Virus record (IMG/VR): IMGVR_UViG_3300029922_002860
Strand: one strand, 5' to 3'
DNA: 23,252 nt
Origin: a virus
Taxonomy: Duplodnaviria; Heunggongvirae; Uroviricota; Caudoviricetes
Shown: one piece after another, positions 1 to 18,487 of the stretch
How the letters are laid out: the number at the start of each line of letters is the position of its first letter
Numbering within the stretch: the first letter of the stretch is position 1
Notes under the pieces: model-generated
The model's input: only the letters and a program-made list of their open reading frames with translations
Databases searched by the model: none
What the model was told of the DNA's origin: nothing
Program-made: the position numbers and the translations under genes

Positions 1-4
1 CTGA

Positions 5-172
5 GTTCTGCCGCCCCTCCAAATACGAGGCCAGCTAGAGCCAAGATTCGCGCGGGGATACGGCTCCTGAGTTCTGCCGCCCCTCCAAATACGAGGCCAG
101 CTAGAGGATACGGCTGCGCGTATCCCGAGAGTGCAAGTTCTGCCGCCCCTCCAAATACGAGGCCAGCTAGAG
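5..172 (-). CRISPR. Mini CRISPR array A (3 repeats, 2 complete spacers; probably continues beyond the window start)
   Basis: Identical 36-nt repeats GTTCTGCCGCCCCTCCAAATACGAGGCCAGCTAGAG at 5-40, 71-106 and 137-172, separated by 30-nt spacers. Strand inferred from anti-repeat G-U pairing and from degenerate trailer repeats in the other modules. Confidence 0.93.
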
Positions 173-302
173 GGCACCGTGCAGACTGTTGCTTGCCAAA
201 GAGTAAGAGGGAAGCAGCCCGGTATAAAACTGTCGCCTTGTGGGCGACCCGGGTAGGCTTGGGGTTGGCCCAAGCGTGAAAGGGATGACTCGAAAAGAAC
301 GA
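173..302 (-). ncRNA. tracrRNA/omegaRNA-like scaffold, copy A
   Basis: ~130-nt element repeated four times. Contains an anti-repeat (189-217) complementary to the adjacent repeat, and stems CCCGG/CCGGG, GTCGCC/GGCGAC and GCTTGGG/CCCAAGC that covary between copies. Confidence 0.82.
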
Positions 303-305
303 GAA

Positions 306-335
306 ACACTATCGGCGAAAAGGGACGGGGTTCAA
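306..335 (-). promoter_or_regulatory. Putative sigma70-like promoter of module A
   Basis: Minus strand TTGAAC-N18-TAGTGT. The predicted start falls at about 299-302, where the segment conserved in all four copies begins. Confidence 0.5.
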
Positions 336-340
336 GTCGG

Positions 341-638
341 CAGTTGCTGTCCGGCTTCAATGGAAGGGACCGAAAGGGGCGGTGGAGTTAGCAGACACGT
401 AGGTCGTTCTGCTGCCCCTCCAAATACGAGGTCAGCAAAAGCAACAGATGCAGTTCCTATGACCATGAAGAGTTCTGCTGTCCCTCCAAATACGAGGCCA
501 GCAAAAGGGCAGGATCATGCATCTGCTCGTGGCCTTGTTCTGCTGCCCCTCCAAATACGAGGCCAGCAAAAGCACTGATGCGAAAACCCGTGTGCAACAT
601 CAGTTCTGCTGTCCCACCAAATACGAGGCCAGCAAAAG
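341..638 (-). CRISPR. Mini CRISPR array B (4 good repeats plus 1 heavily degenerate trailer repeat, 4 spacers)
   Basis: Repeats at 406-441, 472-507, 537-572 and 603-638 (consensus GTTCTGCTGYCCCWCCAAATACGAGGCCAGCAAAAG). A degenerate 36-mer at 341-376 has about 19/36 identity. Spacers are 29, 30, 29 and 30 nt. Confidence 0.92.
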
Positions 639-766
639 GGCACCGTGCGGACTGTTGCTTGCCAAAGAGTAAGAGGGAAGCAGCCTGGTATAAAACTGTC
701 ACCTTACGGTGACCCAGGTGGGCTTGGGGTTGGCCCAAGCGTGAAAGGGATGTGTTGAAAGAACGA
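639..766 (-). ncRNA. tracrRNA/omegaRNA-like scaffold, copy B
   Basis: Near-identical to copy A; anti-repeat at 655-683; stems CCTGG/CCAGG and GTCACC/GGTGAC are compensatory variants of those in copy A. Confidence 0.82.
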
Positions 767-769
767 GAA

Positions 770-799
770 ACACTATCGGCGGAAAGGGACGGGATTCAA
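770..799 (-). promoter_or_regulatory. Putative sigma70-like promoter of module B
   Basis: Minus strand TTGAAT-N18-TAGTGT, same position relative to the scaffold as in copy A. Confidence 0.5.
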
Positions 800-810
800 G
801 GCGGCTCTTG

Positions 811-1242
811 TCGTTGCTGCCCCACCAAATGCGAGGCCAGCAAAAGGTAGCCATCGAATTCGGTGAGATGTTTCATGTTCTGCTGTCCATCCAAATACGA
901 GGTCAGCAAAAGGAGTGGCGAGAAGCTTTCTTCATGGTGGTTGTTCTGCCGCCCCTCCAAATACGAGGCCAGCAAAAGGTTGGTGAGCGCACGGGCCAGC
1001 GCGGCATCGTTCTGCTGTCCCACCAAATACGAGGCCAGCAAAAGCGGCACGGCCGGCGAGAAACGATTGTTTAAGTTCTGCTGTCCCACCAAATACGAGG
1101 CCAGCAAAAGAACGGGCAACGGTCCGGGCAATCAGGCTCCGTTCTGCTGTCCCACCAAATACGAGGCCAGCAAAAGCGCCAAGACCGCCTGCCGCAACCG
1201 TGAGCTGTTCTGCTGTCCCACCAAATACGAGGCCAGCAAAAG
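811..1242 (-). CRISPR. Mini CRISPR array C (7 repeats, 6 spacers)
   Basis: Repeats at 811-846 (degenerate trailer), 877-912, 943-978, 1009-1044, 1075-1110, 1141-1176 and 1207-1242. All spacers are 30 nt and unique. Confidence 0.95.
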
Positions 1243-1371
1243 GGCACCGTGCAGACTATTGCTTGCCAAAGAGTAAGAGGGAAGCAGCCTGGTATAAAAC
1301 TGTCACCTTACGGTGACCCAGGTAGGCTCAGGGTTTACCTGAGCGTGAAAGGGATGACTCGAAAAGAACGG
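1243..1371 (-). ncRNA. tracrRNA/omegaRNA-like scaffold, copy C
   Basis: Third copy; anti-repeat at 1259-1287; stem GCTCAGG/CCTGAGC replaces GCTTGGG/CCCAAGC (compensatory). Confidence 0.82.
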
Positions 1372-1373
1372 GA

Positions 1374-1403
1374 TCACTATCGGCGGAAAGGTGCGGGATT
1401 CAA
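1374..1403 (-). promoter_or_regulatory. Putative promoter of module C
   Basis: Minus strand TTGAAT-N18-TAGTGA; weaker -10 than in copies A and B. Confidence 0.4.
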
Positions 1404-1414
1404 GACGGCTCTTG

Positions 1415-1648
1415 TCGTTACCGTGCCTCCAAATACGAGGCCAGCAAAAGGCCCTTCCCCGATTCGATGAACATTATCGGTTCTGCTGCCCATCCAAATA
1501 CGAGGCCAGCAAAAGGGACATTCAGCCACACGAAAGAGGCCCTAGTGTTCTGCTGCCCCTCCAAATACGAGGCCAGCAAAAGGCAGCCCTGTTCAAGTAC
1601 TTTTCGGTTTTAGTTCTGCTGTCCCACCAAATACGAGGCCAGCAAAAG
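1415..1648 (-). CRISPR. Mini CRISPR array D (4 repeats, 3 spacers)
   Basis: Repeats at 1415-1450 (degenerate trailer), 1480-1515, 1547-1582 and 1613-1648. Spacers are 29, 31 and 30 nt. Confidence 0.93.
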
Positions 1649-1778
1649 GGGCGCCGTGCAGAGTGTTGCTTGCCAAAGAGTAAGAGGGAAGCAGCCCGGT
1701 ATAAAACTGTCGCCTTGTGGGCGACCCGGGTGGGCTCAGGGTTTACCTGAGCGTGAAAGGGATGTGTTGAAAGAACGA
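1649..1778 (-). ncRNA. tracrRNA/omegaRNA-like scaffold, copy D (gene-proximal)
   Basis: Fourth copy, starting 9 nt after the stop codon of the 872-aa gene; anti-repeat at 1666-1694; lacks the upstream promoter segment present in A-C. Confidence 0.82.
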
Positions 1779-1787
1779 ATATCTAAA

Positions 1788-4406
1788 CTACGCGCACTGT
1801 TTGCGCACGGAGATGACTGGAAAGGTAACGGTAGTACGCTCGCCGGCACCGGCAAGTGTCTTCTCAGCGAGATCCTTGAACTTGGCGTCGTACCAGCTCA
1901 GCAGGATGGCCCACGCGGCATTGCTTGCGTAACACGAGGACGCATCGAGCCAATTCTCCCCAGAGGCAACCTTCGCCAGGTCCACGATCTTGTTTTTCTT
2001 CCCGCGCGTAACCGCCGTGTGGATCACGGCATCGCTCTCGGCGACAGTTTCGTCGTGGAACGGCACGCCAAAAGGCAGCGACTCCGAGGACCCGTCTCGC
2101 CACCCTCCGTTCAGGAGCGTCGCTGACTTTGCGGAGATCGAATATGCGCTGACCCCGATCTTCGCCAAAGCCGAGGGCAGGTAGCCTTGGGGCGTCAGCC
2201 TGCCGCCTAACTGGGCTAGCGTATAGAAATCCCGGGCCGGATGGCGGACGCTCCCCTTGCCGAAGATCGGGCCACCGCCGCCTATCACAACATGCCCTAC
2301 CCCGTTCGCCGCGCAGATGTCGGCAATCGACCGGGCAATCTTACGATAAAAACGCTTCCCCTCATTGGTGCGGTAAACGCCGAAATCCTTCATTTGCGCC
2401 CGGTTGACTTCCATGGGGATGAACCCCTTTGAAAGCCTCGACCCGCGCCCCTCGAACTCCTGGTCAAGAGAGTCTGCGTTGAAGTGGACGATCATGTCTT
2501 CGCGGCCGATGGTGTTCTTGAGCACGCGGCGGTTCCCGTTTACCGAAACCTGATTGGGATGCAGCGCCTCCTTGTGGGTTTCGCGAACAACGCGCTGGAA
2601 GGCGTAGGGTTCCCATCCGGTGGGTGCTTCACGATCTACGTTAACCTTCCTGAACATGGTCAAGGTCGCGACGCGGAGCCCGCCTGGGGATGCGTGTACG
2701 ACTGCGAGCAACTCTCCGTTCTGGACCGGCCGGAAACGCCCTGGCTTGAGATCCTGCTTGGCTTCCCGAGCCGCCGCTCTTTGAGCATACAGAGCCTTGC
2801 TCGACTCCAACGAGGCTTCCGCAATCTCGGGCATCACGGTAGCGGAGAAGCATCCAAACACCCGCTTTGCATCCCTGTCTTCTATGGTCAGCCTCAGCGC
2901 CTGAGCCTTGAAGAAAAGTTTGCGGCCTTCGGGGTCTCCCGGCATCGGAAGCGTGGCGTCCGGACGGAACTGCGTGGCCCCGTTTTTAACGTCGATTGCC
3001 TGTGGCAGCCGTGTCGCACGGTTTCCGGGTATGTTGCCACGAATGCGTGCCTCTACGAGGGCGGGGACGCTCATTTGCGCCGGTGCCTCGACTGGACGGT
3101 GCGCAGGGATATAGAGCGACACGTAGATGCAGTTGCTTGGTGCTCCCACCTGCGCCGCTTCCGCCAGCTCCCAACCGTACCGGTTATTGGGAAGCAGCGG
3201 GCTGAGTCCGGACGTGTCGGGAACCGACGGTATCGAGACAGGCCGCATAGCGGCGCAAAAGGCTCTTACCGGGCCAGTCACAAAGTCCTTGATGGCCTTC
3301 AGGGGAATATCCTTTTTGTCGGCTGCAATGATCCTGAGCCACCCCGCATGCTCCTCGGTGTCGCCAGGCTCCAACAGGTCGAGCTGCTCAGGGGGGAGGA
3401 GTCCGAATGCCGCCTGATGGAGGGCGAGAATGCGGCTTAGGACACCGCGGTCTCGCGCCAAGTCTTTCGGCTTGCTGCCTGCCGATGACAGGCGACGGAA
3501 GCGGTCGCTGGGGATGAACGGCGTCGGATCAGACTCAGGAAGGAGCGCGACGAATCGGGCAAGGATCGCAGGGTATTCATCCGCGCTTGCAAGGAACTCG
3601 GGCTCCTTCGGGTCAATTGGTTGCCACGCCGTGATGCCGGGACGAAGAAGAACTGCCCGCCACTGGCATGCGGAGATGACCTTTGAGGGAACCTTCTCGT
3701 CCCGAAGTTCCCGGCGCAGAACCGTGAAATAGCGGCTCGCCGAGTCCTGGGCGGCCTGGGTCATGAAGAATCGCTGGAATGGGTTAAAGAACGCGCCATG
3801 CTCCTTCATTAATCCCTGGACCGTGGCGGCGTGCTCCCTTGCCAGCGCACTTGCGCCCTCCTTGTTGGAAAGAAACGATTTGGCCGCGCCGGCAACTTGA
3901 ACGGACATCGTGCTTAGGATCGTCCCCAGATCAATGGCCCCGAATACAGTCTTGAACCACTCTTCAGTGATGGATGGGGGCTTGATGCCGTAGTGGTCAA
4001 GGACCAGCTTGTACGCGGTGCCGCCGCCAGTCTTCCTTGCTTCAGGGAAGACATAGCCACGCAGCATGATGTAGGCGTTCGATGACTTGAGTATGTCGTC
4101 CCACTTGCGACCGGCAATCCCTCCGTCCCCCGATAGGACGACATCCTTCCAGACCTGGGTATCGAGAATCGCCTGGGGAACCACCGAGGGATTCAGGAGG
4201 AGATAGATTGCCAGCCGGTCATCGCCCTCCACCGTGGCCATTGAGCAAAACGTCTCCAGCAGCGCCTTTGCAGTGGCGCTGAAGGTGCGGATGTAGGAGG
4301 TGAGCGTTCCGTATCCGTCTGGGGAAATCGGCGTCACCCGGCCCTTGAAGGCGGTCGAGTAGATGCGCCCGCAGTTGAGTTGGATTGGGGAAAGTTTATC
4401 GTTCAT
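1788..4406 (-). CDS. TnpB/Cas12-like (type V-like) effector, 872 aa, with apparently inactivated RuvC
   Basis: Long ORF abutting the array modules. N-terminal strand-helix (STAFKGRVTP...LTSYIRTF) resembles the WED/REC start of TnpB/Cas12. The C-terminal third has RuvC-like segments in the expected order: LLAVVHASPG (RuvC-I), RKIARSIADICAANGVGHVVIGGG (RuvC-II), ALAKIGVSAYSISAKSAT, and YASNAAWAILL (RuvC-III). Recognised by eye only. Confidence 0.75.
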   Translation of the reverse strand: MNDKLSPIQLNCGRIYSTAFKGRVTPISPDGYGTLTSYIRTFSATAKALLETFCSMATVEGDDRLAIYLLLNPSVVPQAILDTQVWKDVVLSGDGGIAGRKWDDILKSSNAYIMLRGYVFPEARKTGGGTAYKLVLDHYGIKPPSITEEWFKTVFGAIDLGTILSTMSVQVAGAAKSFLSNKEGASALAREHAATVQGLMKEHGAFFNPFQRFFMTQAAQDSASRYFTVLRRELRDEKVPSKVISACQWRAVLLRPGITAWQPIDPKEPEFLASADEYPAILARFVALLPESDPTPFIPSDRFRRLSSAGSKPKDLARDRGVLSRILALHQAAFGLLPPEQLDLLEPGDTEEHAGWLRIIAADKKDIPLKAIKDFVTGPVRAFCAAMRPVSIPSVPDTSGLSPLLPNNRYGWELAEAAQVGAPSNCIYVSLYIPAHRPVEAPAQMSVPALVEARIRGNIPGNRATRLPQAIDVKNGATQFRPDATLPMPGDPEGRKLFFKAQALRLTIEDRDAKRVFGCFSATVMPEIAEASLESSKALYAQRAAAREAKQDLKPGRFRPVQNGELLAVVHASPGGLRVATLTMFRKVNVDREAPTGWEPYAFQRVVRETHKEALHPNQVSVNGNRRVLKNTIGREDMIVHFNADSLDQEFEGRGSRLSKGFIPMEVNRAQMKDFGVYRTNEGKRFYRKIARSIADICAANGVGHVVIGGGGPIFGKGSVRHPARDFYTLAQLGGRLTPQGYLPSALAKIGVSAYSISAKSATLLNGGWRDGSSESLPFGVPFHDETVAESDAVIHTAVTRGKKNKIVDLAKVASGENWLDASSCYASNAAWAILLSWYDAKFKDLAEKTLAGAGERTTVTFPVISVRKQCA

Positions 4407-4432
4407 TGGATAGTTGAAGATGGGGCAAGGAG

Positions 4433-5245
4433 TCAGGCTGCGACAAAGTGTTGGAGTTCGTTCTCGGCCGTGCGCACGCGTTCAAGCTCTTCGCCTGCAA
4501 GGGCGGCCCTGATGCAACGAAGCCCTGCCTGGAGTAATGCCTCACGCGACCGGCCTTTCTCGGGCTTGGCGAGGTGCTCGAATTTGACCGCCGGATCGTT
4601 AGGCCCCCGGCGCTCAAAGTTCACGAGCCGCGTTGTAAATGCGACCGTGCCGGGGCGGTCCTTGCGGAGGCCCATCGTCAGCGCAAACAGCAGCGGGGCG
4701 CGGAGGCCCATTCGACTAAGCGCCCTGTAATGGCTCGCGAGGTAATCGAGTTCCGGTTGAAGCTCCTTTACGGCTACGACAACATCGTCCATCGAGAACC
4801 GCCTCAGTTTCTTCTCCGGGAACTTGACGTAGACCAGGAAGAGTTTTGCGACAGCCGCCCGCATGTCGCCATGCGTAAAACCATCCGCCTCCAAGAGTGA
4901 GCTGTCGCTCACGCGCGAACGCACGTCCACTGCGATCCTGCTTTCCGGGCTGAGGCCAAAGGCCACCTTCATCGTGACCGTGCGTCCGGCCTTTATGATG
5001 GCCATGAGTCGATGTTGCCCGTCAACGAGGACCCCGCGGCTATCGAACGCGACGCCATCCGCCAAGTTTGCCCAACGCCCTGCAAGGATCTCCTCCGTGA
5101 AGAAAGTGATGTCCGTCTCCTTTGTGTCACGGTTCTGCTTGTTCTGCCTTAGCATGGTGAGCGCCAAGTCCGGGCTCACGGCCAACTCAAATTCCACCAG
5201 AATCTTGCTGTGCAGGTTCTCGGTAAAGACTCGGGTGGCGTTCAT
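4433..5245 (-). CDS. ParB-like N-terminal (DGQHR) domain protein, 270 aa
   Basis: VSPDLALTMLRQNKQNR...GRW...GVAFDSRGVLVDGQHRLMAIIKAGRTV pattern typical of phage ParB-like proteins, with an intact GxxR. ATGA overlap with the upstream paralogue. Confidence 0.8.
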   Translation of the reverse strand: MNATRVFTENLHSKILVEFELAVSPDLALTMLRQNKQNRDTKETDITFFTEEILAGRWANLADGVAFDSRGVLVDGQHRLMAIIKAGRTVTMKVAFGLSPESRIAVDVRSRVSDSSLLEADGFTHGDMRAAVAKLFLVYVKFPEKKLRRFSMDDVVVAVKELQPELDYLASHYRALSRMGLRAPLLFALTMGLRKDRPGTVAFTTRLVNFERRGPNDPAVKFEHLAKPEKGRSREALLQAGLRCIRAALAGEELERVRTAENELQHFVAA

Positions 5246-6033
5246 GTGACGGCCTCCACGGTCTGAAGTTCAATACCTGCGCGAGCTAGCAGGTGCAGGC
5301 GGACGCTCTCCGGCTTATCGGAGTCCTCGATGCCGCAATAGGCGGCGACTACAGAAAGAGCGCTTTCAAAGCGCTCGCGGCCGCTCAGCTTGTGATAGTC
5401 CTCCCCCATGCGCCGGCGATAAGCGAGCACCCTTCGACTCGCCTCGGAGCGATCAAACAACTCGGCCAAAAACTGGCGGACCTTCTCTTTGTAACCATGC
5501 CCAACGAGGGCGAGCACGACGGCGGCCTTTGCGGCATTGCTCCAATAGGGGCCGCTGGCAAGCGTTCCTTTGACGGCCGTCACTTCGTCTACAGCCTCGT
5601 GGAAGATCGCGTGTGCGGCCTCCACGTTGAGAGGGTTCGAGGAGTTCTCGCCTTTGACGTAGAGGATAACTGCATTCAGTACCGGAGCCTCCACCCTCGC
5701 CGTATTGACCCTGCACACGGCACGGAGGACATCCTTCGAGTTGCGAGGCCGCCCGCGGCCGTACTTGTTTAGCGTGTCCGGATCTGCATCGCGGGTGACC
5801 TTCACCTCAACGGTGCTTTGTGATTCGCCGATGGCCGCCAAGAGTTCGCCTCCAGAGATGAGGCGCCCGAGCTTGTCGATGACGACTCCCTGGTGGGTCG
5901 GTTGCCAGCGCCCGTTGCGAATCAAATCGCTATAGTTCTTAATCGAACGCCTGTTGAGTCGCAACCCAGCCGGAAGTTTTGAAAGCAGCTGTTCCGCCGC
6001 TAATGGGTCGATGCTTTGTGTCTTAAGAGCCAT
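5242..6033 (-). CDS. ParB-like paralogue with degenerate motif, 263 aa
   Basis: IDPLAAEQLL...LNRRSIKNYSDLIRNGRWQPTHQGVVIDKLGRLISGGELLAAI aligns with the neighbour, but DGQHRL is replaced by SGGELL. Confidence 0.72.
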   Translation of the reverse strand: MALKTQSIDPLAAEQLLSKLPAGLRLNRRSIKNYSDLIRNGRWQPTHQGVVIDKLGRLISGGELLAAIGESQSTVEVKVTRDADPDTLNKYGRGRPRNSKDVLRAVCRVNTARVEAPVLNAVILYVKGENSSNPLNVEAAHAIFHEAVDEVTAVKGTLASGPYWSNAAKAAVVLALVGHGYKEKVRQFLAELFDRSEASRRVLAYRRRMGEDYHKLSGRERFESALSVVAAYCGIEDSDKPESVRLHLLARAGIELQTVEAVT

Positions 6034-6199: not shown

Positions 6200-7159
6200 T
6201 CAGCGGTAGATGGCGTTCAGGATGTCCGCCAGGCGCATTCCTGCCTCGGCGATCTGGCGGGACATGACCGGCGCCTCGCGCTCTGCATAACCCTCCGGCA
6301 GTCGGATCATGATCTTGTGGAGACGGAGCGCGGGATGCCCCTGCCCCCTTGAAACATCCGCGCGTAAAAACTCTATTCCTTCGTAAGCCTGCGTCCCTAA
6401 GACAACGCTCTCAGAAGCCCAGACTGTTGGCCAATGGTGAAAGTCGCCGCCCGTTTCCATGTGAGCGGCCCCGTATTGGCGCATTGCCGTTGCCGCCAGA
6501 GTCCGGTAATCCGTGCCGCTAGAAATCTTCTTCAGCAGGACGGTGTCGAAATACTCGTGCAACTCCTCTGATTTGGTGAAGAAGAGCGCGTTCCCGCCGG
6601 CGTCACCTGGAGAGACTGCCGTAACTTCGCTTGGCGACAGAAGCCGCGGCCTCTCGGGGTCGCTCAGGTCGAAATACCCTGTGATGCAGTGAAGAGGTTG
6701 CGAAATGTCTCCGACACAGTGAATCAAGACACGGGCCGCCTCAGATTGTGAAAGACCAGTTTGGCGCCCGTCGAGAGTTGCTACTGCAAGCGCGATGGCA
6801 TGCGCCACATCGTTCTTGGACGCGTAGAGTTGCGCGTTCGGGTTGTACGAAGTTTCGCCGACAGGGACGTTAACAAAATGCCACTTCGTCGAGCCGGGAA
6901 AGCGGTGGATAAAATCCTTGGCTTCCGCGTCACCTTTCATTTCGCCGCGGTTCTGGCCTGCTGCGCGCACCTCATCGAGCCATGTGGATGCCGATACCAT
7001 GTCGGTTGTCCCCAGGGCCTTTGTGATGCCCGCGCCAGCCTCCGGAGTCAGGTGCTCCTGTGCGATCAACGCGATGGCCCGATGCCCCTCGGCGCCGAAG
7101 CCGAACGCGTTTACGGTCACTGCTAAGGCGAGAAGGATCGAGGTTACGGAATGTCTCAT
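6200..7159 (-). CDS. S1/P1 nuclease family protein with signal peptide (start revised to ATG 7159, 319 aa)
   Basis: MRHSVTSILLALAVTVNAFG signal-like N-terminus, then FGAEGH, STWLDEVR, WHFVN, IHCVGDISQPLH and LHEYFD zinc-ligand motifs of the S1/P1 family. Confidence 0.88.
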   Translation of the reverse strand: MRHSVTSILLALAVTVNAFGFGAEGHRAIALIAQEHLTPEAGAGITKALGTTDMVSASTWLDEVRAAGQNRGEMKGDAEAKDFIHRFPGSTKWHFVNVPVGETSYNPNAQLYASKNDVAHAIALAVATLDGRQTGLSQSEAARVLIHCVGDISQPLHCITGYFDLSDPERPRLLSPSEVTAVSPGDAGGNALFFTKSEELHEYFDTVLLKKISSGTDYRTLAATAMRQYGAAHMETGGDFHHWPTVWASESVVLGTQAYEGIEFLRADVSRGQGHPALRLHKIMIRLPEGYAEREAPVMSRQIAEAGMRLADILNAIYR

Positions 7160-7172
7160 GGGTTGAAGATGG

Positions 7173-8141
7173 TCACGCGAAGGTAAGCTCCCCCTGCCTT
7201 GGTCGCGGTAGGGGCGGCAGAACTTGGGGGGCAGGAGGCGGAATTTCGGGGGCATGGGCTTCGACCTTGGGTCGCACGACCGCATCACGCCCGAAATCCT
7301 CCGCAAACTGGCTCCATATCGAGGCGGCATCGAGGCAGTTGAGTTGCTCCAGTCGTTCGAGGACCTTGGGAAGATCGTTCCCGGCCTGCGGCTTCAACCC
7401 CGCGATGAGGTTCGGGCGAATCAACCTGAAGTTCAGGGCCATCTCAGTCGCCGCTCGCTCACGGGGCCAATTCTTCTTATTGGCCACGAGGTCCACCAGT
7501 TGCTCGTCATCCGGCTCCCCGGAAAGCAAGCTCACGGCTGTCACTGGGCCGATCCCCTCAATGCCAGGAGTGTTGTCGGTCACATCGCCCACCAACGAGA
7601 GGTAGCGGTCCATCTGGGAAGGAGGCACTCCGAAGTCCTCCTTTACCGTTGCTGCATCGCAGCGCTTCCAGCCCCCTGTTATGGGGATGAGCCACGTGAC
7701 GTTGTCCCCTACGACCTGGGAGTAATCCTTGTCGTGGGTCGCGATCAGCACTTCCACCCCAGCCCGACCCTTTGCGACCGTTGCGAGGCTCATTAGCAAA
7801 TCGTCGCACTCCTGCCCTTCCTGGTGGACGTACTCAGCTCCAGAGTCCCTAATGAAGGACTCCACGACCGGGATCTGCTGGGCAAGCTCGGGGGCTTTGG
7901 GCTTCCTGAGCGCCTTGTACTCGGGGTAGAACCCGCGTCGGAAATCGCTCCCTCCGTCGAGGCCGAAGATTACCCGGTTCGGCTCAGTAAAACGAATGAG
8001 GTTCGCGAGCATCGTGGCGCTCTTGGCCACCGCGTTTGTAGGGAAGCCCGAGCATCGCCGGATCGTCATGCCCTTGAGGGCTGTGACGTGATAGGCGCGG
8101 TGGACTAGGTTGCTCCAATCAACTAAGAGTATGCGGTTCAC
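7173..8141 (-). CDS. 5'-3' exonuclease / flap endonuclease (Pol I N-terminal-like); start revised to GTG 8141, 322 aa
   Basis: LLVDWSNLVHRAYH, FGLDGGSDFRRGFYPEYKALR, ECDDLL, THDKDY, LVGDVTDNTPGIEGIGPVTA (H3TH). GTG follows the conserved upstream motif at 8145-8160. Confidence 0.92.
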   Translation of the reverse strand: MNRILLVDWSNLVHRAYHVTALKGMTIRRCSGFPTNAVAKSATMLANLIRFTEPNRVIFGLDGGSDFRRGFYPEYKALRKPKAPELAQQIPVVESFIRDSGAEYVHQEGQECDDLLMSLATVAKGRAGVEVLIATHDKDYSQVVGDNVTWLIPITGGWKRCDAATVKEDFGVPPSQMDRYLSLVGDVTDNTPGIEGIGPVTAVSLLSGEPDDEQLVDLVANKKNWPRERAATEMALNFRLIRPNLIAGLKPQAGNDLPKVLERLEQLNCLDAASIWSQFAEDFGRDAVVRPKVEAHAPEIPPPAPQVLPPLPRPRQGELTFA

Positions 8142-8144
8142 TTC

Positions 8145-8160
8145 CCTATAAGTATGGGGA
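8145..8160 (-). promoter_or_regulatory. CCCCATACTTATAGG promoter-like motif
   Basis: CATACT hexamer 9 nt upstream of GTG 8141. Confidence 0.6.
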
Positions 8161-8178
8161 GTGCTCGCGCTACGATCT

Positions 8179-8952
8179 TCAGAGTGCCCTGCGGGTTTTC
8201 CACCACCGTTGGAAGTCCGACGACACAAGAAGCATGCCGACCGCCAGGGGCAGGCTCAGGAAGGCCCACCCCCACCGAACCCTCCAGTTCGGGAAATTGA
8301 GCATCACGGGTTCGTTCCGCAGGACAAAACGGGTTCCGACAAGCCCCAATTTTTGACAGGCTGCGAACTGCGCGTCGTTCGCATTGCGGAGGTTGGGTCG
8401 CAGAGGGATAATCCTCTCGCCAGGGACATCGTCCGTGGCATTCATCGAGTATGACTTCCCGTCGATTCGGACGGAGGTCCACACGTGCCCCTCACGGTCC
8501 CCGACCTTCGACCAGAGGTGAGCCTTGACGGAGGCATCGAGTCCGAGAGCCCGCAGTAGCGAGAAAAGCACTATGGTCTGGGCTTTGCAGTCGCCCCTCC
8601 AATAGGGCCAACCCTCCAGCGCGGCTTTCTGGCGCAATTCGTCTATCGTGCGAACTTTGCCAGCCGTGAGCCATGTCTGCTCGTCCAATGCATACTGGAC
8701 ATGCACGAGCATTGTTGTGAATGCGAGGGCCGCACGTTGTTTTGGGTCAACGGTAGCATCTGCGATGGCGGCGGCCCATGCGAGAATGTCTGGGTCCTTT
8801 GGGTCGGCTTTAGCCTCGATGAGTTGTGCCGCAAACTCTGTTGTACCTGGCTTTTCCAGGACCTCCATGTTTGGCGGCGGCCCCATCGCAAGGAAAACGA
8901 GGGCAGGCGCGAGAGCTAACCCCGCGTAAAGGAACACAAATGCCCTCCTCAT
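8179..8952 (-). CDS. Membrane-anchored transglutaminase-like protein (start revised to ATG 8952, 257 aa)
   Basis: Hydrophobic N- and C-terminal segments; RGDCKAQT...LLRALG and GHVWTSV match the Cys/His motifs of transglutaminase-like proteins. ATGA overlap with the kinase stop codon. Confidence 0.7.
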   Translation of the reverse strand: MRRAFVFLYAGLALAPALVFLAMGPPPNMEVLEKPGTTEFAAQLIEAKADPKDPDILAWAAAIADATVDPKQRAALAFTTMLVHVQYALDEQTWLTAGKVRTIDELRQKAALEGWPYWRGDCKAQTIVLFSLLRALGLDASVKAHLWSKVGDREGHVWTSVRIDGKSYSMNATDDVPGERIIPLRPNLRNANDAQFAACQKLGLVGTRFVLRNEPVMLNFPNWRVRWGWAFLSLPLAVGMLLVSSDFQRWWKTRRAL

Positions 8953-11117
8953 TTTTGAGGGACCTGCATCGGCAGGTGGAAACAGAATGACCTGTCCAGC
9001 GGGTCGTAGGTTAACTCGGACCCGATAGCGCTCAGGTGTTCCCGAACGAGATTCAACCCGAGGCCATAACCCGATCCACGGCTCTTCCAGCTCTGGGTCT
9101 GCTTCGTGGACATGATGCGTTTCCCTGAATTCAACGCTTCCACGACCGAAAGGGGAAGGCCAGGGCCGGTATCTCGAACGTGGATCACACAATCGTGAAC
9201 CCGCTCTGAAAAAAGCACCGTGATGAAACCTCCCCCTCCCGACTCTTCTATCGCCTCGGCCGCATTGCGCACAAGATTGGTAAAAACCTGGAGACCAGCA
9301 GCCCGTCCGACATGCAGCATTATTTTCCCAGGCACGTCGTAGACAAGATTTGCCTCCGCCATGCTGAGTTCGGCGCGACAGAGCATTTCTACGTGGCTAA
9401 GCAGTTCAGCAAGTGAGACAGCACTGGAGTTGTCCTGGGTGTCGGTAAATGGGCGGATTGCTTCGAGCGCTTCGTCCACTCTCCTTCGCGATACGCTGTA
9501 GCGGTCTATCTGTCCCATCAACTCTTTGATGTCGTAGGGGTACTTGGCGAGAATGCCGGCAACGGTCTCCGTCTCTGTTCCAAGAGCAATCGCCTCGATC
9601 AAGGCCCGGGACTGGGCGAAATAAATGTCCAAGCCGGATAGAGGAGTGCGAAGCTCGTGGACTAGCTTGGCCGCCAATTGGCCCGTCTGGAGAAGCGATG
9701 TGTCGGACGCTTTTCGCGCCATCGCGCTAACCAGCCTCTCGTTGAACGAAAACTGATAAAGAATGATCTGCGCATTTCCGAGAGCCTTTTCCAGACCCAG
9801 TCTGTTTCGCCCGTTGTTGTTGATGATGGTGAACGCCAACATCACGAGCACACCGTCTTCTACAACAGGAAGTGCCCAGTTCCAATCGGGGGGCATCTCG
9901 TGCCTGCCCCACTTTCTTGCTACCTGGCCTGTGTCGAAAAATGTTCGCTGTTCGACTCCCTCGAACAAGAGCCCGCTTGAGGGCTCCAGCTTTGCCGGGC
10001 AAGATGGGTTTCGCAGGCTGGTCGCAGCCAGAGCGAAGTGCCCATCAAGTCTCGCCGGTCGGTAGAGAATCACCGGACCGTCCAGCAGTTTTGCCAGAGA
10101 ACTGATGATTAGACTCACGTTTCGTTCCCTTGCGGCCGTTGCCACCACATCTGCGGAAGGAGCTTCGATCTCGGTCCAGCCACGGACAAACCGTCGCACA
10201 CCCGGAAGCAATGCGGCGAGGAACAGCGTCAAGGCTAGAGACCCTAAAAAGGCTCGCAGGGTCGCTGTCCCGTCATCGAGACCGCCCAACCCAAAGATTC
10301 CAATCACCATGAGCGGTGTTACGAGGACGGCTATGATTGCCCCGGCAATGTTGTAGGCAAGCGGAGCGCTCGGATAGTCCTCAAAATAAGAACCCAGTCG
10401 TGACGTTTTTTTTGGGGTCTGTATGTACCGCCAAGGTATCACGGGAGGGAGCAGTGATGAATGCGGCCAGAGCAGTTGGGTCATGGCCCAAACTGACACC
10501 GGAGCCATGATATTCGCGTACGGCGGGATGGAGAGGTAGAGGAAGCCCGGGATGTTCGTCACGTACCCCAATACTCCAAGAAGGGCTATGAGCGCGAAAA
10601 CCCTCATTTGCTGAACTTGGACGCCTCGAAGCTTCTCCCTAAAGGAGTGCGCGACCGGTAGCGCAACGGCGATCAATCCTAGGCCGAAAACGATTACAAA
10701 TATCCACCCTCCAGGCCCCGCCACAGGCCAGTAGGGCTCTCCGAATTCGGGTACAAGTCTTTCCACGACCCAATCTGATCCGAGCGCCAAGAAACCGTGC
10801 GCAGTCGCCAGTGCATAGGAAGATATTATCAAGGCCCGTGAATTGATGGCTGGAAACCAAACCCCCATCAACAGCACCAGGCCCGGACCGACGAACCCGC
10901 CAAAGCAGACCATGAACCGACAATACGTAATGGCTGAATCGGGGTCGGAACTGCACTGCCAAAGGAAATAGGATGCGGCCCATCCGATGAACGCAGCGGA
11001 GAAGGCCACGAAAGCCGTGCCCAGATTCCTTCTGCAATGGGCTCGGTGCATGCTTATTAAGCCAAGCAAACCTGTAAGAAAACTGAGCGCTGACGAAATT
11101 TGTAGATATAAACGCAT
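8949..11117 (-). CDS. Multi-TM sensor histidine kinase, 722 aa
   Basis: Many N-terminal hydrophobic helices; H-box LVHELRTPL, N-box QVFTNLVRNAAEAI, G1 VRDTGPGL, G2 GSGYGLGL. Confidence 0.92.
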   Translation of the reverse strand: MRLYLQISSALSFLTGLLGLISMHRAHCRRNLGTAFVAFSAAFIGWAASYFLWQCSSDPDSAITYCRFMVCFGGFVGPGLVLLMGVWFPAINSRALIISSYALATAHGFLALGSDWVVERLVPEFGEPYWPVAGPGGWIFVIVFGLGLIAVALPVAHSFREKLRGVQVQQMRVFALIALLGVLGYVTNIPGFLYLSIPPYANIMAPVSVWAMTQLLWPHSSLLPPVIPWRYIQTPKKTSRLGSYFEDYPSAPLAYNIAGAIIAVLVTPLMVIGIFGLGGLDDGTATLRAFLGSLALTLFLAALLPGVRRFVRGWTEIEAPSADVVATAARERNVSLIISSLAKLLDGPVILYRPARLDGHFALAATSLRNPSCPAKLEPSSGLLFEGVEQRTFFDTGQVARKWGRHEMPPDWNWALPVVEDGVLVMLAFTIINNNGRNRLGLEKALGNAQIILYQFSFNERLVSAMARKASDTSLLQTGQLAAKLVHELRTPLSGLDIYFAQSRALIEAIALGTETETVAGILAKYPYDIKELMGQIDRYSVSRRRVDEALEAIRPFTDTQDNSSAVSLAELLSHVEMLCRAELSMAEANLVYDVPGKIMLHVGRAAGLQVFTNLVRNAAEAIEESGGGGFITVLFSERVHDCVIHVRDTGPGLPLSVVEALNSGKRIMSTKQTQSWKSRGSGYGLGLNLVREHLSAIGSELTYDPLDRSFCFHLPMQVPQK

Positions 11118-11128
11118 GGACCTCCCTG

Positions 11129-11145
11129 CCCTATAATTATGGGGA
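11129..11145 (-). promoter_or_regulatory. CCCCATAATTATAGGG promoter-like motif
   Basis: Upstream of the kinase ATG 11117, followed by GGGAGG (RBS-like). Confidence 0.6.
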
Positions 11146-11222
11146 ACGGCGGCAAGACGGTGAAGAATTTGCCGTAAATCGCTAGCCAGAATGACTTCCG
11201 GCCAAAATATAATAAATACCGC

Positions 11223-11600
11223 TCAGACCCCAAGATGGGGCCGAACCTGTGTTCCGCGCTCGGGCTTCAAGAGCGGGCGAAACGCTGGTTCGGTGCTGCG
11301 CAACGATGCATCTTCGTAATCCCGTATCACCTTCAGTTGGCCGCAAACGTCCGTCGTGGCCTCCTCCGTAAAGATTCCTGACGCTTCAAGTATCCCCCTG
11401 GCGTCCATGCCTGTAGAAATTCCCTTGGCGTGCAATTGCTGTGCGACATGGACAGCGCGCTCGGCCTCGGTCATCCCTGCGAGGTCCTCTTGGCGCAGGT
11501 GCTCGATCAACGTGGGCCATTCGCATTCGGCTCGCTTGGAAGAGCCTGGCATTCCCACGGCTATGACTGTTTCGCCTCGGTCGTTTAAGGTGTGATTCAT
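11223..11600 (-). CDS. Hypothetical protein, 125 aa
   Basis: ORF tiles with co-oriented neighbours; no recognisable motif. Confidence 0.6.
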   Translation of the reverse strand: MNHTLNDRGETVIAVGMPGSSKRAECEWPTLIEHLRQEDLAGMTEAERAVHVAQQLHAKGISTGMDARGILEASGIFTEEATTDVCGQLKVIRDYEDASLRSTEPAFRPLLKPERGTQVRPHLGV

Positions 11601-11622
11601 TGGAAAAGGAGATCGGGTGTGC

Positions 11623-11919
11623 TTAGGCTTGGATGCAACAGATGCTAACGCGTAATCTCACGGCCCGAGATGACCTTCGGCGTGGGGAGGGGACGCAATT
11701 GGGCGCGGGGTTTTCCTCGTCAGCGCCGGCGTTCTCTTGCGCATGGCGTTCCAGGCGATCAAGGGTGTCAGGATCGAGCGATCCTTCGACGGTCCCGAAG
11801 ACGGCCCTCCGAACGTGGGCGACGTTATCCATGATGCCACGCCCCGCTTTCGTCAGGATACCTACCTTTGGAGGTTCGGTGGCCCCTGAACTCGGTGGAT
11901 TCGAATTGCCGGGTGTCAT
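11623..11919 (-). CDS. Hypothetical protein (start revised to ATG 11919, 98 aa)
   Basis: ATG 1 nt after the upstream stop (TGA-C-ATG); fills the gap between neighbours. Confidence 0.45.
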   Translation of the reverse strand: MTPGNSNPPSSGATEPPKVGILTKAGRGIMDNVAHVRRAVFGTVEGSLDPDTLDRLERHAQENAGADEENPAPNCVPSPRRRSSRAVRLRVSICCIQA

Positions 11920-11920
11920 G

Positions 11921-12511
11921 TCAAATTTGGCTTTGGAGTTGCCGCTCTGTGGAGGCCGTCCGTGGCGTTGCCAGCTTGCACCCCGCAGCGGTCCGCAAGC
12001 GCCGGTCGATCTCCGCAAGTTCGAACTCGTCGATGTGGTACTCGATCAGGGGGACCTTGAGTTCCCTGGGCGGATTTAACCCGTCGTTGAGTCGGAAGCT
12101 TTTGTGGGTATCGAACCAGCCGGCTCCTGACCCAAGAGCCATGAGGCCCAAGCTGTGGCCAAAATCGCGAGCATGTGCCAAATGCTGCTCGCAGGTGTGG
12201 CAATCGTCTTCGTGCTCGATGAACTCGCCGCGCGCTGCCGCGCAGACGCCTTCGTGGCGGAGTCCGTCTGCCGCGCACGCATGGGCGTAGATGCTCGCAA
12301 AGGGGAGCTTGTTCGCCCCTTCGATGAGCCCGGTCAAGTAGGCCGCCGTGAGCTTAGCGTGTTCCGGTGTCGGAGGAGCGACCTCGAACAGGTCCTGGCC
12401 GCGGTAGGTGATCCCGGCTTCCTCCTTTGCCGAGCCCCACGCCTGAACAAACACACTCCTCGCTATCGCATCATTGATGATCGTCGTAAGGGGGGAGTCG
12501 ATGTAGCTCAT
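11921..12511 (-). CDS. Hypothetical mobile-element protein, 196 aa
   Basis: ATG 7 nt after CATACT; contains HEDDCHTCEQH and FGHSLGLMALGSGAGWFDTH segments; family not assigned. Confidence 0.7.
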   Translation of the reverse strand: MSYIDSPLTTIINDAIARSVFVQAWGSAKEEAGITYRGQDLFEVAPPTPEHAKLTAAYLTGLIEGANKLPFASIYAHACAADGLRHEGVCAAARGEFIEHEDDCHTCEQHLAHARDFGHSLGLMALGSGAGWFDTHKSFRLNDGLNPPRELKVPLIEYHIDEFELAEIDRRLRTAAGCKLATPRTASTERQLQSQI

Positions 12512-12512
12512 A

Positions 12513-12528
12513 CCCTAAAGTATGGGGT
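12513..12528 (-). promoter_or_regulatory. CCCCATACTTTAGGG promoter-like motif (leaderless spacing)
   Basis: Hexamer ends 7 nt before ATG 12511. Confidence 0.6.
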
Positions 12529-12602
12529 TCACCGCCCAAACGTCCTTCAGGCGCTACCCGCCCAGTGCAAGCGCCTGCGGTCAGGCCCACAGAGCCCGAC
12601 CC

Positions 12603-13235
12603 TTAGATGTCGTCCGAAGTGAACCAGCTCGACTGGTCGGGACCATCGGCGTCGCCCTGGTCTCCAGAGGGGTACCGGCTCTCGATGTCCGGGTCATCAT
12701 TCCGGGCTAGAGATTCGCGGCAATGGTTCACCAAGGCCGCCATAAAGACACGCGCGATCCCCATGAGCGCCGCCCGCCCGTCTTCGGTAAGGGTGTCGGC
12801 AGCGGGATAGAGCATCGTCGCGCCCCAGGGGTATTCCTCTGGGACCGGGGGCAGTGAGGGAGTTGCGGCCCTTCCCGAGCCCACCATGACAGGGATGAAT
12901 TCGCACCCGAGAGTGTACCAAGCGCTTCGTGACAAGATCGGGCTCACCGCGCATGCTCCGTACAGCAACTTGGCCCCGTCTTTGACATCGGCGCTGAAAT
13001 CGTGGGCGGCGGAGATCGTGAAAGTCGCCGACCCTGCTCCGCAAAACTGAAGGTCGGCCTCTGCGCAAAGATTGTCGCTGTAGCGGACGCGGGCCGTGAT
13101 CTCCTGGGAGGCGAGGGCTGCGCTCTTGCAGGCCACTTGCTTGTCAGCGAGGAACTCCAGCGGCACACGTACCCTGGCGCCTGAACTCAAGTCCAGGTGG
13201 ACGAAGTGGGTTGCTGGTGGTACGTGGCGTTCCAT
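12603..13235 (-). CDS. Hypothetical protein, 210 aa
   Basis: Long co-oriented ORF with ATG start and an acidic C-terminus; no family recognised. Confidence 0.65.
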   Translation of the reverse strand: MERHVPPATHFVHLDLSSGARVRVPLEFLADKQVACKSAALASQEITARVRYSDNLCAEADLQFCGAGSATFTISAAHDFSADVKDGAKLLYGACAVSPILSRSAWYTLGCEFIPVMVGSGRAATPSLPPVPEEYPWGATMLYPAADTLTEDGRAALMGIARVFMAALVNHCRESLARNDDPDIESRYPSGDQGDADGPDQSSWFTSDDI

Positions 13236-13318
13236 GGAGAGATTCTGTCCCTACATGGTACTACGCTCGATTCGGCCCAAATCCGCACCTAAAACTGCTT
13301 AAATGTAAAAAATACCCA

Positions 13319-13335
13319 CCCCCCGGGGGGCCTCC
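13319..13335. repeat. CCCCCCGGGGGGCCTCC palindromic motif, copy 1
   Basis: Perfect 12-bp palindrome plus CCTCC, intergenic; identical 17-mer at 18848-18864. Confidence 0.6.
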
Positions 13336-13344
13336 TCGGAAGGG

Positions 13345-13557
13345 CTAAGGAGCGGGGTTTTGCCGGAAAAGCCGCAGCGGCCGCCCACCTTTGGCCTCGA
13401 AAAGGCTCTTTTCCCCCAACGGGGTCACTACCCGCAGCGAGTACCCGGTCTCATTCTCCCGACTGTTTTCGAGGGCCTCGCACCGAACTTTCGTGCCGGA
13501 AACGTCTTCGTAGAACACGTCCCCGGACTTGACCTCTGAAATTCGGATAGGGCGCAT
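13345..13557 (-). CDS. Small hypothetical protein, 70 aa
   Basis: Starts 3 nt after the stop of 13561..14178; beta-rich composition. Confidence 0.6.
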   Translation of the reverse strand: MRPIRISEVKSGDVFYEDVSGTKVRCEALENSRENETGYSLRVVTPLGEKSLFEAKGGRPLRLFRQNPAP

Positions 13558-13560
13558 GGC

Positions 13561-14178
13561 TCAGGTCCCTTGGAGTGGCGCCCCTGCAAACAGGTCCATC
13601 TGGCCCCTGGCTGGCTGACTGGCCAATGGTCGAAACATCTTGAGGGTCCGAAAGTCTCCGGCGTTCATCAGCTCGTTCGAGCCAAACTCGAAGCATCGCT
13701 TGAGGGCCAGAAGAACCCCAGTCCCGGTCGGCGAGGACACCTCCCTGTGCAACGGGATCTCGACCCCTCCCAGGAGGGACCCGGTGTTGGCGTAGAGAGC
13801 CCGAACGTCTTCCCCCTGGGGTCTCACCCAGAACCACGTTTCGCTCTCAGGATTTTGCCCAACATAAAGCCGCTCGCCCGACCCGCTGCTGCGCAATTGC
13901 TCCACAATAAGATGGGTTTCGAGGGCGAAACCATCCGGCTCCAAGAGCAGGCAATGCTCCTCCCCCTTTCGGGTGGCGAGGGAGTAGTAGGTCAGCGCCG
14001 TCCTGAGGTACCCCACCTCTCTTAGCTTCTGTGAGGTTTCCAGGAAGCGGGCGGAATACGGGGACTCCCCTGGCACAGCAGAGTCGATCTTCCTGGTCAG
14101 GGTGAAGACAGCGCTATCAGCAGGCAGGTGCCCATTGGGCTTAATGGGCTTCAGTTTGGAGGCAAACGCTGGGTGCAT
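13561..14178 (-). CDS. Hypothetical protein, 205 aa, with C-terminal QMDLF clamp-binding-like motif
   Basis: ATG 8 nt after CATACT; QMDLF encoded at 13588-13602. Confidence 0.7.
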   Translation of the reverse strand: MHPAFASKLKPIKPNGHLPADSAVFTLTRKIDSAVPGESPYSARFLETSQKLREVGYLRTALTYYSLATRKGEEHCLLLEPDGFALETHLIVEQLRSSGSGERLYVGQNPESETWFWVRPQGEDVRALYANTGSLLGGVEIPLHREVSSPTGTGVLLALKRCFEFGSNELMNAGDFRTLKMFRPLASQPARGQMDLFAGAPLQGT

Positions 14179-14181
14179 CTA

Positions 14182-14197
14182 CCATAAGTATGGGGAG
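14182..14197 (-). promoter_or_regulatory. CCCCATACTTATGG promoter-like motif (one half of a divergent pair)
   Basis: Upstream of ATG 14178. Confidence 0.6.
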
Positions 14198-14250
14198 TTC
14201 CAGCCGGTATGGCCCCAGAACCATGCGTTCTGGAGGAAGACCCGGCCGGT

Positions 14251-14268
14251 CCCCCCATAATTTATACC
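14251..14268 (+). promoter_or_regulatory. CCCCCCATAATTTATACC promoter-like motif (divergent partner)
   Basis: CATAAT hexamer 7 nt before ATG 14269 on the plus strand; motif orientation follows gene orientation. Confidence 0.6.
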
Positions 14269-16422: not shown

Positions 16423-16429
16423 CCCTCCT

Positions 16430-16732
16430 ATGAACCTTCCCGCTGAAACCATGACGCCGACGAAGGCGTTTGCCGAACTCGCCGCGCTTTACCCTGCCGA
16501 GGTTTCCTCGTTGCTCAGGCTGCCGAAGCCCGAAGCGGTCGAACTGCTCCACCTGGCAGGCAAGATCGCTTGCGAAGACCAATCTGACCCTGTTGGCACG
16601 GCCGCAGCCAAGCTACGCGACGCCCTCGGGCTGGATCGTGGAGACACGGAGACGATCACAAAGCCGCTATCCCCTGCTGAAAGCGACCTCTACGACAGCC
16701 TTTGCGCTGAAGTTCTCAGGCTCCTGGCCTGA
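16430..16732 (+). CDS. Hypothetical helical protein, 100 aa
   Basis: Starts 7 nt after the LPD gene stop; co-oriented. Confidence 0.6.
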   Translation: MNLPAETMTPTKAFAELAALYPAEVSSLLRLPKPEAVELLHLAGKIACEDQSDPVGTAAAKLRDALGLDRGDTETITKPLSPAESDLYDSLCAEVLRLLA

Positions 16733-16759
16733 GGCGAGGTAGCAGCTTACTTACACAGC

Positions 16760-17437: not shown

Positions 17438-17456
17438 TTTGACGGAAAGCACGCAC

Positions 17457-17696
17457 TTAAGCGGCCACGGCCTGGGCACGTAGTCCCAATTGTACAGCCC
17501 GGACCGTCGCCACCCTGACTCCCGCCCGCCTCGCCTGCTTAGCCTTCCTCCTGGCTAGGAAGAAGTCGCCGCCGCGCTCGATGGCCATCCTGCCGTTGCT
17601 GAAGTCCGACGCGAAAACCGCCTTAACGCTGTCCTGAGGGAAGCGCTTTTGGCCGATCAGGTAAAGCTGGCTTTGAGGCAGCTTGCAGCAGGGCAA
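17457..17696 (-). CDS. Small basic hypothetical protein, 79 aa
   Basis: Follows the 17705..18370 stop closely; start codon uncertain. Confidence 0.4.
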   Translation of the reverse strand: MPCCKLPQSQLYLIGQKRFPQDSVKAVFASDFSNGRMAIERGGDFFLARRKAKQARRAGVRVATVRAVQLGLRAQAVAA

Positions 17697-17704
17697 ATCT
17701 CAGC

Positions 17705-18370: not shown

Positions 18371-18403
18371 AGGAGGCTCCGGGCTTCGTGTTTCCTGGGT
18401 TCG

Positions 18404-18472: not shown

Positions 18473-18473
18473 G

Positions 18474-18487
18474 CCTAAAGTATGGGT
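18474..18487 (-). promoter_or_regulatory. CCCATACTTTAGG promoter-like motif
   Basis: Same motif as at 12513 and 21059. Confidence 0.55.

Follow-up and report, generated by a model that had tools for sequence, protein, structure and literature searches.

The window, that is, the whole 23,252-nt stretch of DNA analysed here, starts with a CRISPR-like array at positions 1 to 1790, in which 36-nt repeats are separated by spacers of 29 to 31 nt. Four conserved non-repeat modules, each roughly 130 to 170 nt long, break up this array within the window. Read on the minus strand, each module comes first and is followed by a mini-array with three to seven repeats. A repeat scan showed that each mini-array closes with a repeat whose 3′ end is degenerate. 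The features are given below in minus-strand order.

4433 to 5245, minus strand: gene for a protein of 270 aa that contains a VDGQHR (ParB/Srx-like) motif, immediately upstream of the effector gene; matches phrog_5931 (E = 4e-36)
1788 to 4406, minus strand: gene for the 872-aa effector (P0001); Cas12 fold, RuvC-like motifs without a conserved acidic residue
1666 to 1778, minus strand: scaffold D (covariance model, 191.9 bits) with stem 1, stem 2 and the anti-repeat (1666 to 1694); begins directly after the effector stop codon
1649 to 1665, minus strand: linker of module D, 17 nt, from the sequence; the hairpin loop in the RNAfold structure
1415 to 1648, minus strand: mini-array D (repeat scan), first repeat 1613 to 1648; four repeats, the last degenerate at its 3′ end
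1259 to 1370, minus strand: scaffold C (covariance model, 200.8 bits), anti-repeat 1259 to 1287
1243 to 1258, minus strand: linker of module C, 16 nt
811 to 1242, minus strand: mini-array C (repeat scan), first repeat 1207 to 1242; seven repeats, the last degenerate
655 to 766, minus strand: scaffold B (covariance model, 197 bits), anti-repeat 655 to 683
639 to 654, minus strand: linker of module B, 16 nt
406 to 638, minus strand: mini-array B (repeat scan), first repeat 603 to 638; four repeats
189 to 301, minus strand: scaffold A (covariance model, 198.7 bits, and RNAfold), anti-repeat 189 to 217
173 to 188, minus strand: linker of module A, 16 nt, from sequence and fold
5 to 172, minus strand: mini-array A, first repeat 137 to 172; runs off the start of the window, and three more modules follow in L004

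An earlier note on this DNA had singled out positions 137 to 217, which on the minus strand consist of the first repeat (137 to 172), the linker (173 to 188) and the anti-repeat (189 to 217) of module A. The coordinates it gave for the four anti-repeats (189 to 217, 655 to 683, 1259 to 1287 and 1666 to 1694) are exact, and the linkers measure 16, 16, 16 and 17 nt, within the 16 to 17 nt that it stated. All four of its module sites were recovered, but its count of four is too low once DNA outside the window is included. Near-identical DNA (L002 to L004) was obtained by a metagenome pattern scan, and L004, taken from a 103.8-kb peat contig, carries three further modules past the start of the window (L004:1-1469), which brings the total to at least seven. 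Past the third of these, L004 has about 300 nt of non-coding sequence and then a gene resembling those of CCA-adding/HD-domain enzymes.

Each scaffold is about 110 nt long and is made up of a 5′ UUUCAC segment, two covarying stems, a conserved GUUUUA bulge and, at its 3′ end, the anti-repeat. A search of window positions 1 to 5000 against Rfam matched no family, and scans of IMG/VR and of species genomes with the scaffold pattern returned no match. The inner hairpin of stem 2, together with AGUUUUAUA, scored as terminator-like at 232 to 248, 698 to 713, 1302 to 1317 and 1709 to 1725 (minus strand). We rejected a terminator inside the scaffold, as this hairpin is trailed by four U residues only and the GUUU(G/U)A segment occurs family-wide. 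Conservation of the segment across the whole RNA family suggests that it is probably a protein-recognition or contact element rather than a terminator, and within stem 2 it would probably form a protein-contact bulge.

The P0001 ORF had no sequence match in Pfam, NCBIfam, PHROG or the PDB. An AlphaFold (AF2) model built from 24 family members had a pLDDT of 87.5 and a pTM of 0.74. In a Foldseek search of the PDB, all 50 of the matches listed were Cas12 proteins, the best being Cas12b (E = 1.7e-9), with Cas12X, g, h, i, m, CasX (Cas12e), f and k also among those listed. Neighbours of the model in the ESM Atlas were Cas12a/b and TnpB. P0001 therefore has the layout of a type V effector, a single large protein with a bilobed Cas12/TnpB fold and a RuvC-like domain, and the adjacent array has the regular repeats, unique spacers and guide position 3′ of the repeat that characterise type V loci. 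The non-coding RNA next to it has an anti-repeat complementary to the repeat, as tracrRNAs do. The catalytic triad of type V effectors was not found: the alignment of 24 family members contains AVxHxxPGG, LVAGxG and xNAAWAILL motifs, and no invariant or near-invariant D or E column that would correspond to the RuvC D..E..D triad. The family is most likely nuclease-dead, a reading that comes from the alignment rather than from structural superposition, and P0001 would then be a DNA binder that does not cleave. The family is rare: a HMMER search, run exhaustively against 1.84 billion representatives, returned only 38 relatives, and protein-based locus searches found none in IMG/VR or among 185,579 species genomes. 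The effector family appears to be undescribed by Pfam and NCBIfam.

The 270-aa DGQHR protein encoded directly upstream of the effector has a counterpart in a related locus, where the gene upstream of the effector homologue P0005 (L007:3-746) encodes a protein 49% identical to it. From sequence comparison, this protein is a possible conserved partner of the effector. The next ORF in the window (5242 to 6033) also matches phrog_5931. Further along, positions 6200 to 23252 encode an S1/P1 nuclease, a 5′-3′ exonuclease, a histidine-kinase-like protein, an LPD1-domain polyvalent protein, an ankyrin protein, an RNA ligase and a class II ribonucleotide-reductase-like protein, a gene content that looks like that of a large phage or other mobile element. 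No cas1, cas2, cas4 or other adaptation genes were found in the window.

RNAfold structures of the minus strand showed an outer helix in which CUGCUUCCCUC is paired with the 3′ end of the repeat, and an inner helix in which GGCAAGCAA is paired with UUGCUGGCC at eight of nine positions. An internal loop of about 8x8 nt lies between the helices and the linker forms the hairpin loop. This interrupted two-helix hairpin was recovered in all seven modules, in which the joint fold of anti-repeat and repeat is 3.4 to 8.7 kcal/mol better than that of the halves folded apart. The duplex energy is -26.7 kcal/mol, compared with -15.1 +/- 3.3 kcal/mol for dinucleotide shuffles of the anti-repeat (8 of 2000 shuffles were as good), and among 30-mers taken elsewhere in the window 1.3% do as well. 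The two-helix pairing around an internal loop that the earlier note had described, with its inner helix paired at eight of nine positions, is therefore reproduced by RNAfold and exceeds the shuffled expectation. The helices stand as described; the details differ in that positions 137 to 217 contain two G-U pairs rather than one (the GGCGGCAG repeat variant) and in that the loop is about 8x8 rather than 9x9.

The repeat on its own folds into a 12-bp hairpin (-11.7 to -15.8 kcal/mol), and in two related loci, L001 and L008, the self-folded repeat matches the anti-repeat pairing in stability. In the window, the anti-repeat is similar to the 5′ half and loop of the repeat (p about 0.03). L008 shows a weak similarity of this kind (p about 0.09) and L001 none. 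It has been proposed that anti-repeats derive from repeats (Faure et al., PMC6546382). As the repeats are palindromic and the anti-repeat is like a degenerate half repeat, part of the complementarity comes free, and the pairing and covariation may be partly inherited rather than selected. Repeat variants such as CUCUAG and CUGACC disrupt the inner helix, and the anti-repeat has no matching change. When the scaffold and a crRNA were cofolded in trans, the complex had an energy of -40.6 kcal/mol, compared with -32.4 kcal/mol for the monomers. Trans pairing is thermodynamically favourable by this calculation, yet it would compete with the repeat's own hairpin.

The two stems upstream of the anti-repeat have clean compensatory changes among the paralogous copies, present in four of eight sequences at several pairs. 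In an alignment of ten modules (A4), 93.7% of cells are paired, compared with 87.4% in shuffles, and changes on both sides occur at 14 pairs, compared with 5.2 +/- 1.5 in shuffles, a signal that collapses when the partners are slid; this alignment was fitted to the covariance model, so the pair counts lean towards structure. Compensatory pairs make up 5 of the 11 in the outer helix of A4, and the inner helix has none. The compensatory changes in the outer helix are those of two other lineages.

Several features bear on which strand is transcribed. The A/G variants of the repeat sit opposite U on the minus strand, and the whole structure contains 17 G-U cells and 4 A-C cells, which bears out the claim in the earlier note that the repeat variants fix the orientation. 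Folding of both strands, the check it had proposed, also favoured the minus strand (z-score of -2.2, compared with -0.8 for the plus strand). The degenerate trailer repeats mark the minus-strand 3′ end of the mini-arrays, and the gene-proximal scaffold begins right after the stop codon of the co-oriented 872-aa ORF.

The array contains about 27 unique spacers and one that is duplicated. The two copies of the duplicated spacer (L004:527-556 and 999-1028) are each the last before the degenerate trailer repeat of their module. Duplication of the spacer along with the trailer repeat points to a spread of modules by segmental duplications that took in the trailer, the inter-module region and the scaffold. 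The uniqueness of all other spacers implies that they were acquired at the scaffold-proximal end once the modules had been duplicated. Two neighbouring spacers of module A (42 to 71 and 108 to 137) share the 10-nt string AGCCGTATCC on the minus strand and may come from overlapping or related protospacers. Searches for spacer targets found none in a plasmid collection and a single 39-nt match in a phage collection (87% identity, E = 0.01), which we took to be chance. Neither the remainder of the window nor the fetched loci contained a protospacer with six or fewer mismatches, and no PAM/TAM was found. We also considered the linker as a fixed guide of 16 to 17 nt and rejected this, as the 17-mer occurs nowhere else in the window.

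A sigma-70 consensus scan detected no promoter in positions 1 to 1900 and none in the linker; a TTGAAT...TAGTGT element scores below the threshold of the scan. There was no terminator-like site 3′ of the anti-repeat. A promoter or terminator would not fit into the linker, so the scaffold and array most likely form one transcript, and the transcript of the array would start in or before the scaffold. Parts of the stretch are present in nine peat and permafrost metatranscriptome runs, and the contigs of four of these were mapped and cover scaffolds and arrays. One peat metatranscriptome contig spans 95 to 241, which includes the 3′ part of the scaffold, the linker, repeat 1 and spacer 1, while others bridge a mini-array into the next scaffold. 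These contigs are unstranded, have collapsed repeats and may include DNA carry-over, and are a weak hint of expression.

Related loci with arrays share this layout. In L001, whose effector is 51% identical to P0001, the stop codon is directly followed by a scaffold, an anti-repeat, a linker of ~28 nt, repeats and a second scaffold. In L008 (effector 48% identical), a single scaffold is followed by an anti-repeat, a linker of ~26 nt and five repeats, and this set is located 1.3 kb from the effector gene on the opposite strand. A scaffold right behind the stop codon of a co-oriented gene was found in five loci. At L007, the locus of the close relative P0005, no scaffold match was found and a terminator lies directly behind the gene. 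The close relative P0004 (45% identical) also has no scaffold directly after its stop codon; a PIN-like gene occupies that place, 60 nt downstream. On the P0004 contig, which has genes at 4514 to 5209 and 8240 to 9055, an upstream neighbour has weak matches to Sigma70_r3/r4 in Pfam. This sigma-like neighbour recalls dCas12f-sigmaE systems.

More distant relatives (L006, L010, L011 and L005; 24 to 30% identity) have one scaffold each, starting within about 10 nt of the stop codon, and no repeats were found at these loci. In all four the order is stem 1, stem 2 with a conserved GUUUGA loop, a short terminal hairpin, CUGAAC and then diverging sequence. The guide RNA of these distant relatives thus looks like an omegaRNA. 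Infernal aligned their terminal hairpin to the 5′ strand of the anti-repeat and the 3′ end of the repeat in the window (E = 4e-4 for L006, 6e-3 for L010 and 0.27 for L005), with 68 nt of the window (the remainder of the anti-repeat, the linker and the repeat) treated as an insertion in the hairpin loop. The covariance model did not match L011, whose ending is the same by sequence and by MAFFT alignment. The cis fold in the window places spacer 1 after ...CAGAAC, which is the site of the only guide of the relatives, and spacer 1 would accordingly be presented as a natural single guide. The earlier note had compared the locus to an intermediate between omegaRNA and tracrRNA:crRNA, and this comparison is apt, since the anti-repeat:repeat helix aligns onto the terminal hairpin of the relatives.

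The putative single guides of L005, L006, L010, L011 and L012 had no target in their own loci. The putative guides that follow ...GAAC at L010:5548-5571, L011:5155-5178 and L012:6660-6683 are similar to one another (GCAAGTATGTGTTTCG, GCAAATATGTATTCCG and CCAGTATATGTTCCGC). This similarity suggests that they have a conserved target in the host, as TldR-type repressors do. The effector homologues in these three loci adjoin Gcw_chp (PF09694) genes, and cation-efflux genes are located nearby in L011 and L012. Downstream of the P0016 effector in L012 (6590 to 6665), the 11-nt string TTTGGTTCGAG occurs twice after a scaffold-like region, with starts 50 nt apart. The two copies may form an array of two units whose repeat is very short.

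In a maximum-likelihood tree of the family, a single well-supported clade, out of at least four deep clades, contains every array-bearing locus, and the single-guide loci fall in two others. This distribution mildly favours a fused ancestor, although the tree has no root and re-fusion has been documented elsewhere (PMC10691335). We tentatively put forward a fuller history, which we consider less likely than not. This rare dead-Cas12 family of 800- to 900-aa proteins would keep both ends of the omegaRNA-to-CRISPR transition, with a fused RNA in most clades and, in one clade, the hairpin and guide duplicated into an array. The 5′ strand of the hairpin would have become the anti-repeat via strand swapping between palindromic repeats, and only the cis-linked spacer 1 would be loaded efficiently, hence the seven-fold multiplication of the unit.

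On balance, and with slightly better than even confidence, we read window positions 1 to 1790, together with about 1.5 kb beyond the window start, as the minus-strand guide-RNA locus of a nuclease-dead Cas12-like DNA binder, in which spacer 1 of each module serves as a natural single guide. The inference in the earlier note, that the first spacer is expressed as a fused guide and later crRNAs use the scaffold as tracrRNA, is thus partly supported: the orientation, the pairing, the Cas12 fold and the hairpin of the distant relatives bear it out, whereas a single mature RNA of scaffold and first repeat and the use of the scaffold in trans are proposals. The primary transcript would contain the scaffold, anti-repeat, linker and mini-array in one RNA. 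The anti-repeat and first repeat would fold into a long interrupted hairpin in cis, and this hairpin would offer spacer 1 as a single guide to the non-cutting, DNA-binding Cas12-like protein. The downstream repeat-spacer units would need the scaffold in trans or else be poorly used. Poor use of the internal units would explain why whole modules were multiplied, and the multiplication may reflect the advantage of a cis-linked first, newest spacer.

Alternatively, the locus could be an ordinary dual-RNA type V system, in which the scaffold is a tracrRNA encoded beside the array (as in V-B, V-E, V-F and V-K), a host RNase separates crRNA 1, all spacers act as dual RNAs and the cis linkage has no function. 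Such a system would account for the two-helix anti-repeat:repeat duplex, which resembles those of tracrRNA-dependent Cas12 systems, for the favourable cofold in trans, for the tracrRNA users Cas12b, Cas12g and CasX among the best structural matches, and for mini-arrays that hold three to seven acquired-looking spacers, unique save for one duplicate. A single tracrRNA gene would be enough for it, yet there are seven structurally maintained copies, each with its own mini-array, and the distant relatives use a single fused RNA. The duplex is also interrupted, with 11 and 8 bp around the 8x8 loop, and an interrupted duplex is a poor substrate for RNase III. Taken together, these points make a purely dual-RNA system rather doubtful. 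Plus-strand transcription, or a structure acting at the DNA level that would make the minus-strand pairing irrelevant, seems to us highly improbable. Watson-Crick compensatory changes are strand-symmetric and the RNA contigs have no strand information, so neither speaks against it; the excess of G-U over A-C cells and the folding z-scores do, as do the recurrence in five loci of a scaffold behind the stop codon of a co-oriented gene and the position of the guide 3′ of the repeat handle, which fits type V on the minus strand only.

The self-complementarity of the repeat raises a further alternative. The "anti-repeat" could be a decayed leader-proximal repeat, with the crRNA consisting of a self-folded hairpin and a guide; the linker and anti-repeat would then be an integration junction or nothing at all, and the scaffold would have another role or serve an ancestral fixed guide only. 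The repeat does form its own hairpin, the anti-repeat resembles the 5′ half of the repeat including its loop bases, the two folds are equal in energy in L001 and L008, and the degenerate trailer repeats imply that the scaffold side is the leader side. The proposed origin of anti-repeats from repeats would also agree with it. Against this, the window anti-repeat outpairs the repeat's own 5′ half on the 3′ half of the repeat, and the L001 anti-repeat is unlike the repeat and still pairs with it, with compensatory changes. Compensatory changes maintain the scaffold stems in all copies, so the scaffold is presumably functional and must reach the guides somehow, and the linker has no target in the window. 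We therefore consider a decayed repeat improbable and retain the natural single guide as our preferred reading.

If spacer 1 is indeed presented in cis, then sgRNA-like guides for a large relative of Cas12 have arisen in nature, and the locus shows a fused guide RNA turning into a tracrRNA and CRISPR array, or the reverse. There would also be a functional reason for tandem cassettes of scaffold and mini-array. Single-guide and array states are both found within one protein family, so the steps between them are directly comparable and can be tested at the bench. In practice, the effector family could be of use for RNA-guided binding of DNA with a natural guide that is self-contained.

TnpB/OMEGA systems consist of a protein of about 400 aa in IS200/IS605 or IS607 elements and an omegaRNA that overlaps the 3′ end of its gene, with one guide set by the transposon flank. 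As in TnpB omegaRNA/reRNA and in TranC, the scaffold here starts where the effector gene ends, with the guide at the 3′ end of the RNA. Unlike TnpB, the window protein is twice as large, has arrays of guides and has an apparently dead RuvC domain, and no transposon ends, TnpA or transposase were found among the window ORFs scanned; the locus therefore does not qualify as a TnpB/OMEGA system. The dual guides of V-B/E/F/G/K systems (Cas12b, CasX, Cas12f, Cas12g and Cas12k) also have a structured RNA beside the array, pairing in two segments and a guide-side helix with the 3′ end of the repeat. Those systems have one tracrRNA gene, whose RNA works in trans in maturing crRNAs or in loading the effector, whereas here there are at least seven co-oriented copies, each 16 to 17 nt from its own first repeat, and the window effector apparently lacks the catalytic triad.

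The layout has published precedents in other lineages, namely chimeric single guides with interspersed arrays, omegaRNA arrays and RNA splitting. Dead Cas12f homologues (dCas12f-sigmaE) use chimeric single guides, and at some of their loci full-length guide genes sit alongside discontinuous CRISPR arrays with scaffold-like repeats (Hoffmann et al., Nature 2026, PMC13472631). Sigma-TnpB loci have fusions of a tracrRNA and a half-repeat, and tandem omegaRNA arrays (Altae-Tran et al., PNAS 2023, PMC10691335). Both resemble the window in having a nuclease-dead Cas12 derivative (predicted here), a scaffold and 3′ guide in one molecule and tandemly duplicated guide units. The window has no rpoE or other sigma factor, and so lacks the ECF sigma partner that defines those systems, and its scaffold runs via anti-repeat and linker into a multi-spacer array rather than to a single fixed guide. 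In contrast to dCas12f-sigmaE, the effector is 872 aa long and its best folds are Cas12b/X/g/h, not Cas12f (roughly 400 to 500 aa). RNA splitting has been described in TranC transposon-CRISPR intermediates (Jin et al., Cell 2025, as cited in PMC13565253). TranC effectors are able to use a transposon-derived reRNA as well as a CRISPR RNA. The presence of both single-guide and array-bearing members in our family is what the splitting of an omegaRNA into a tracrRNA and a crRNA would lead one to expect. In type II, the tracr-L of S. pyogenes Cas9 is a natural single guide (Workman et al. 2021, as cited in PMC13472631), a natural RNA folded like an engineered sgRNA. As described there, that tracrRNA is self-folded and directed at the cas promoter, whereas the fold in the window uses the first repeat of the array and no self-target was found. 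What is new here is a large Cas12b/g/h-like effector of no known family, with a scaffold fused to a real multi-spacer array and present in seven copies.
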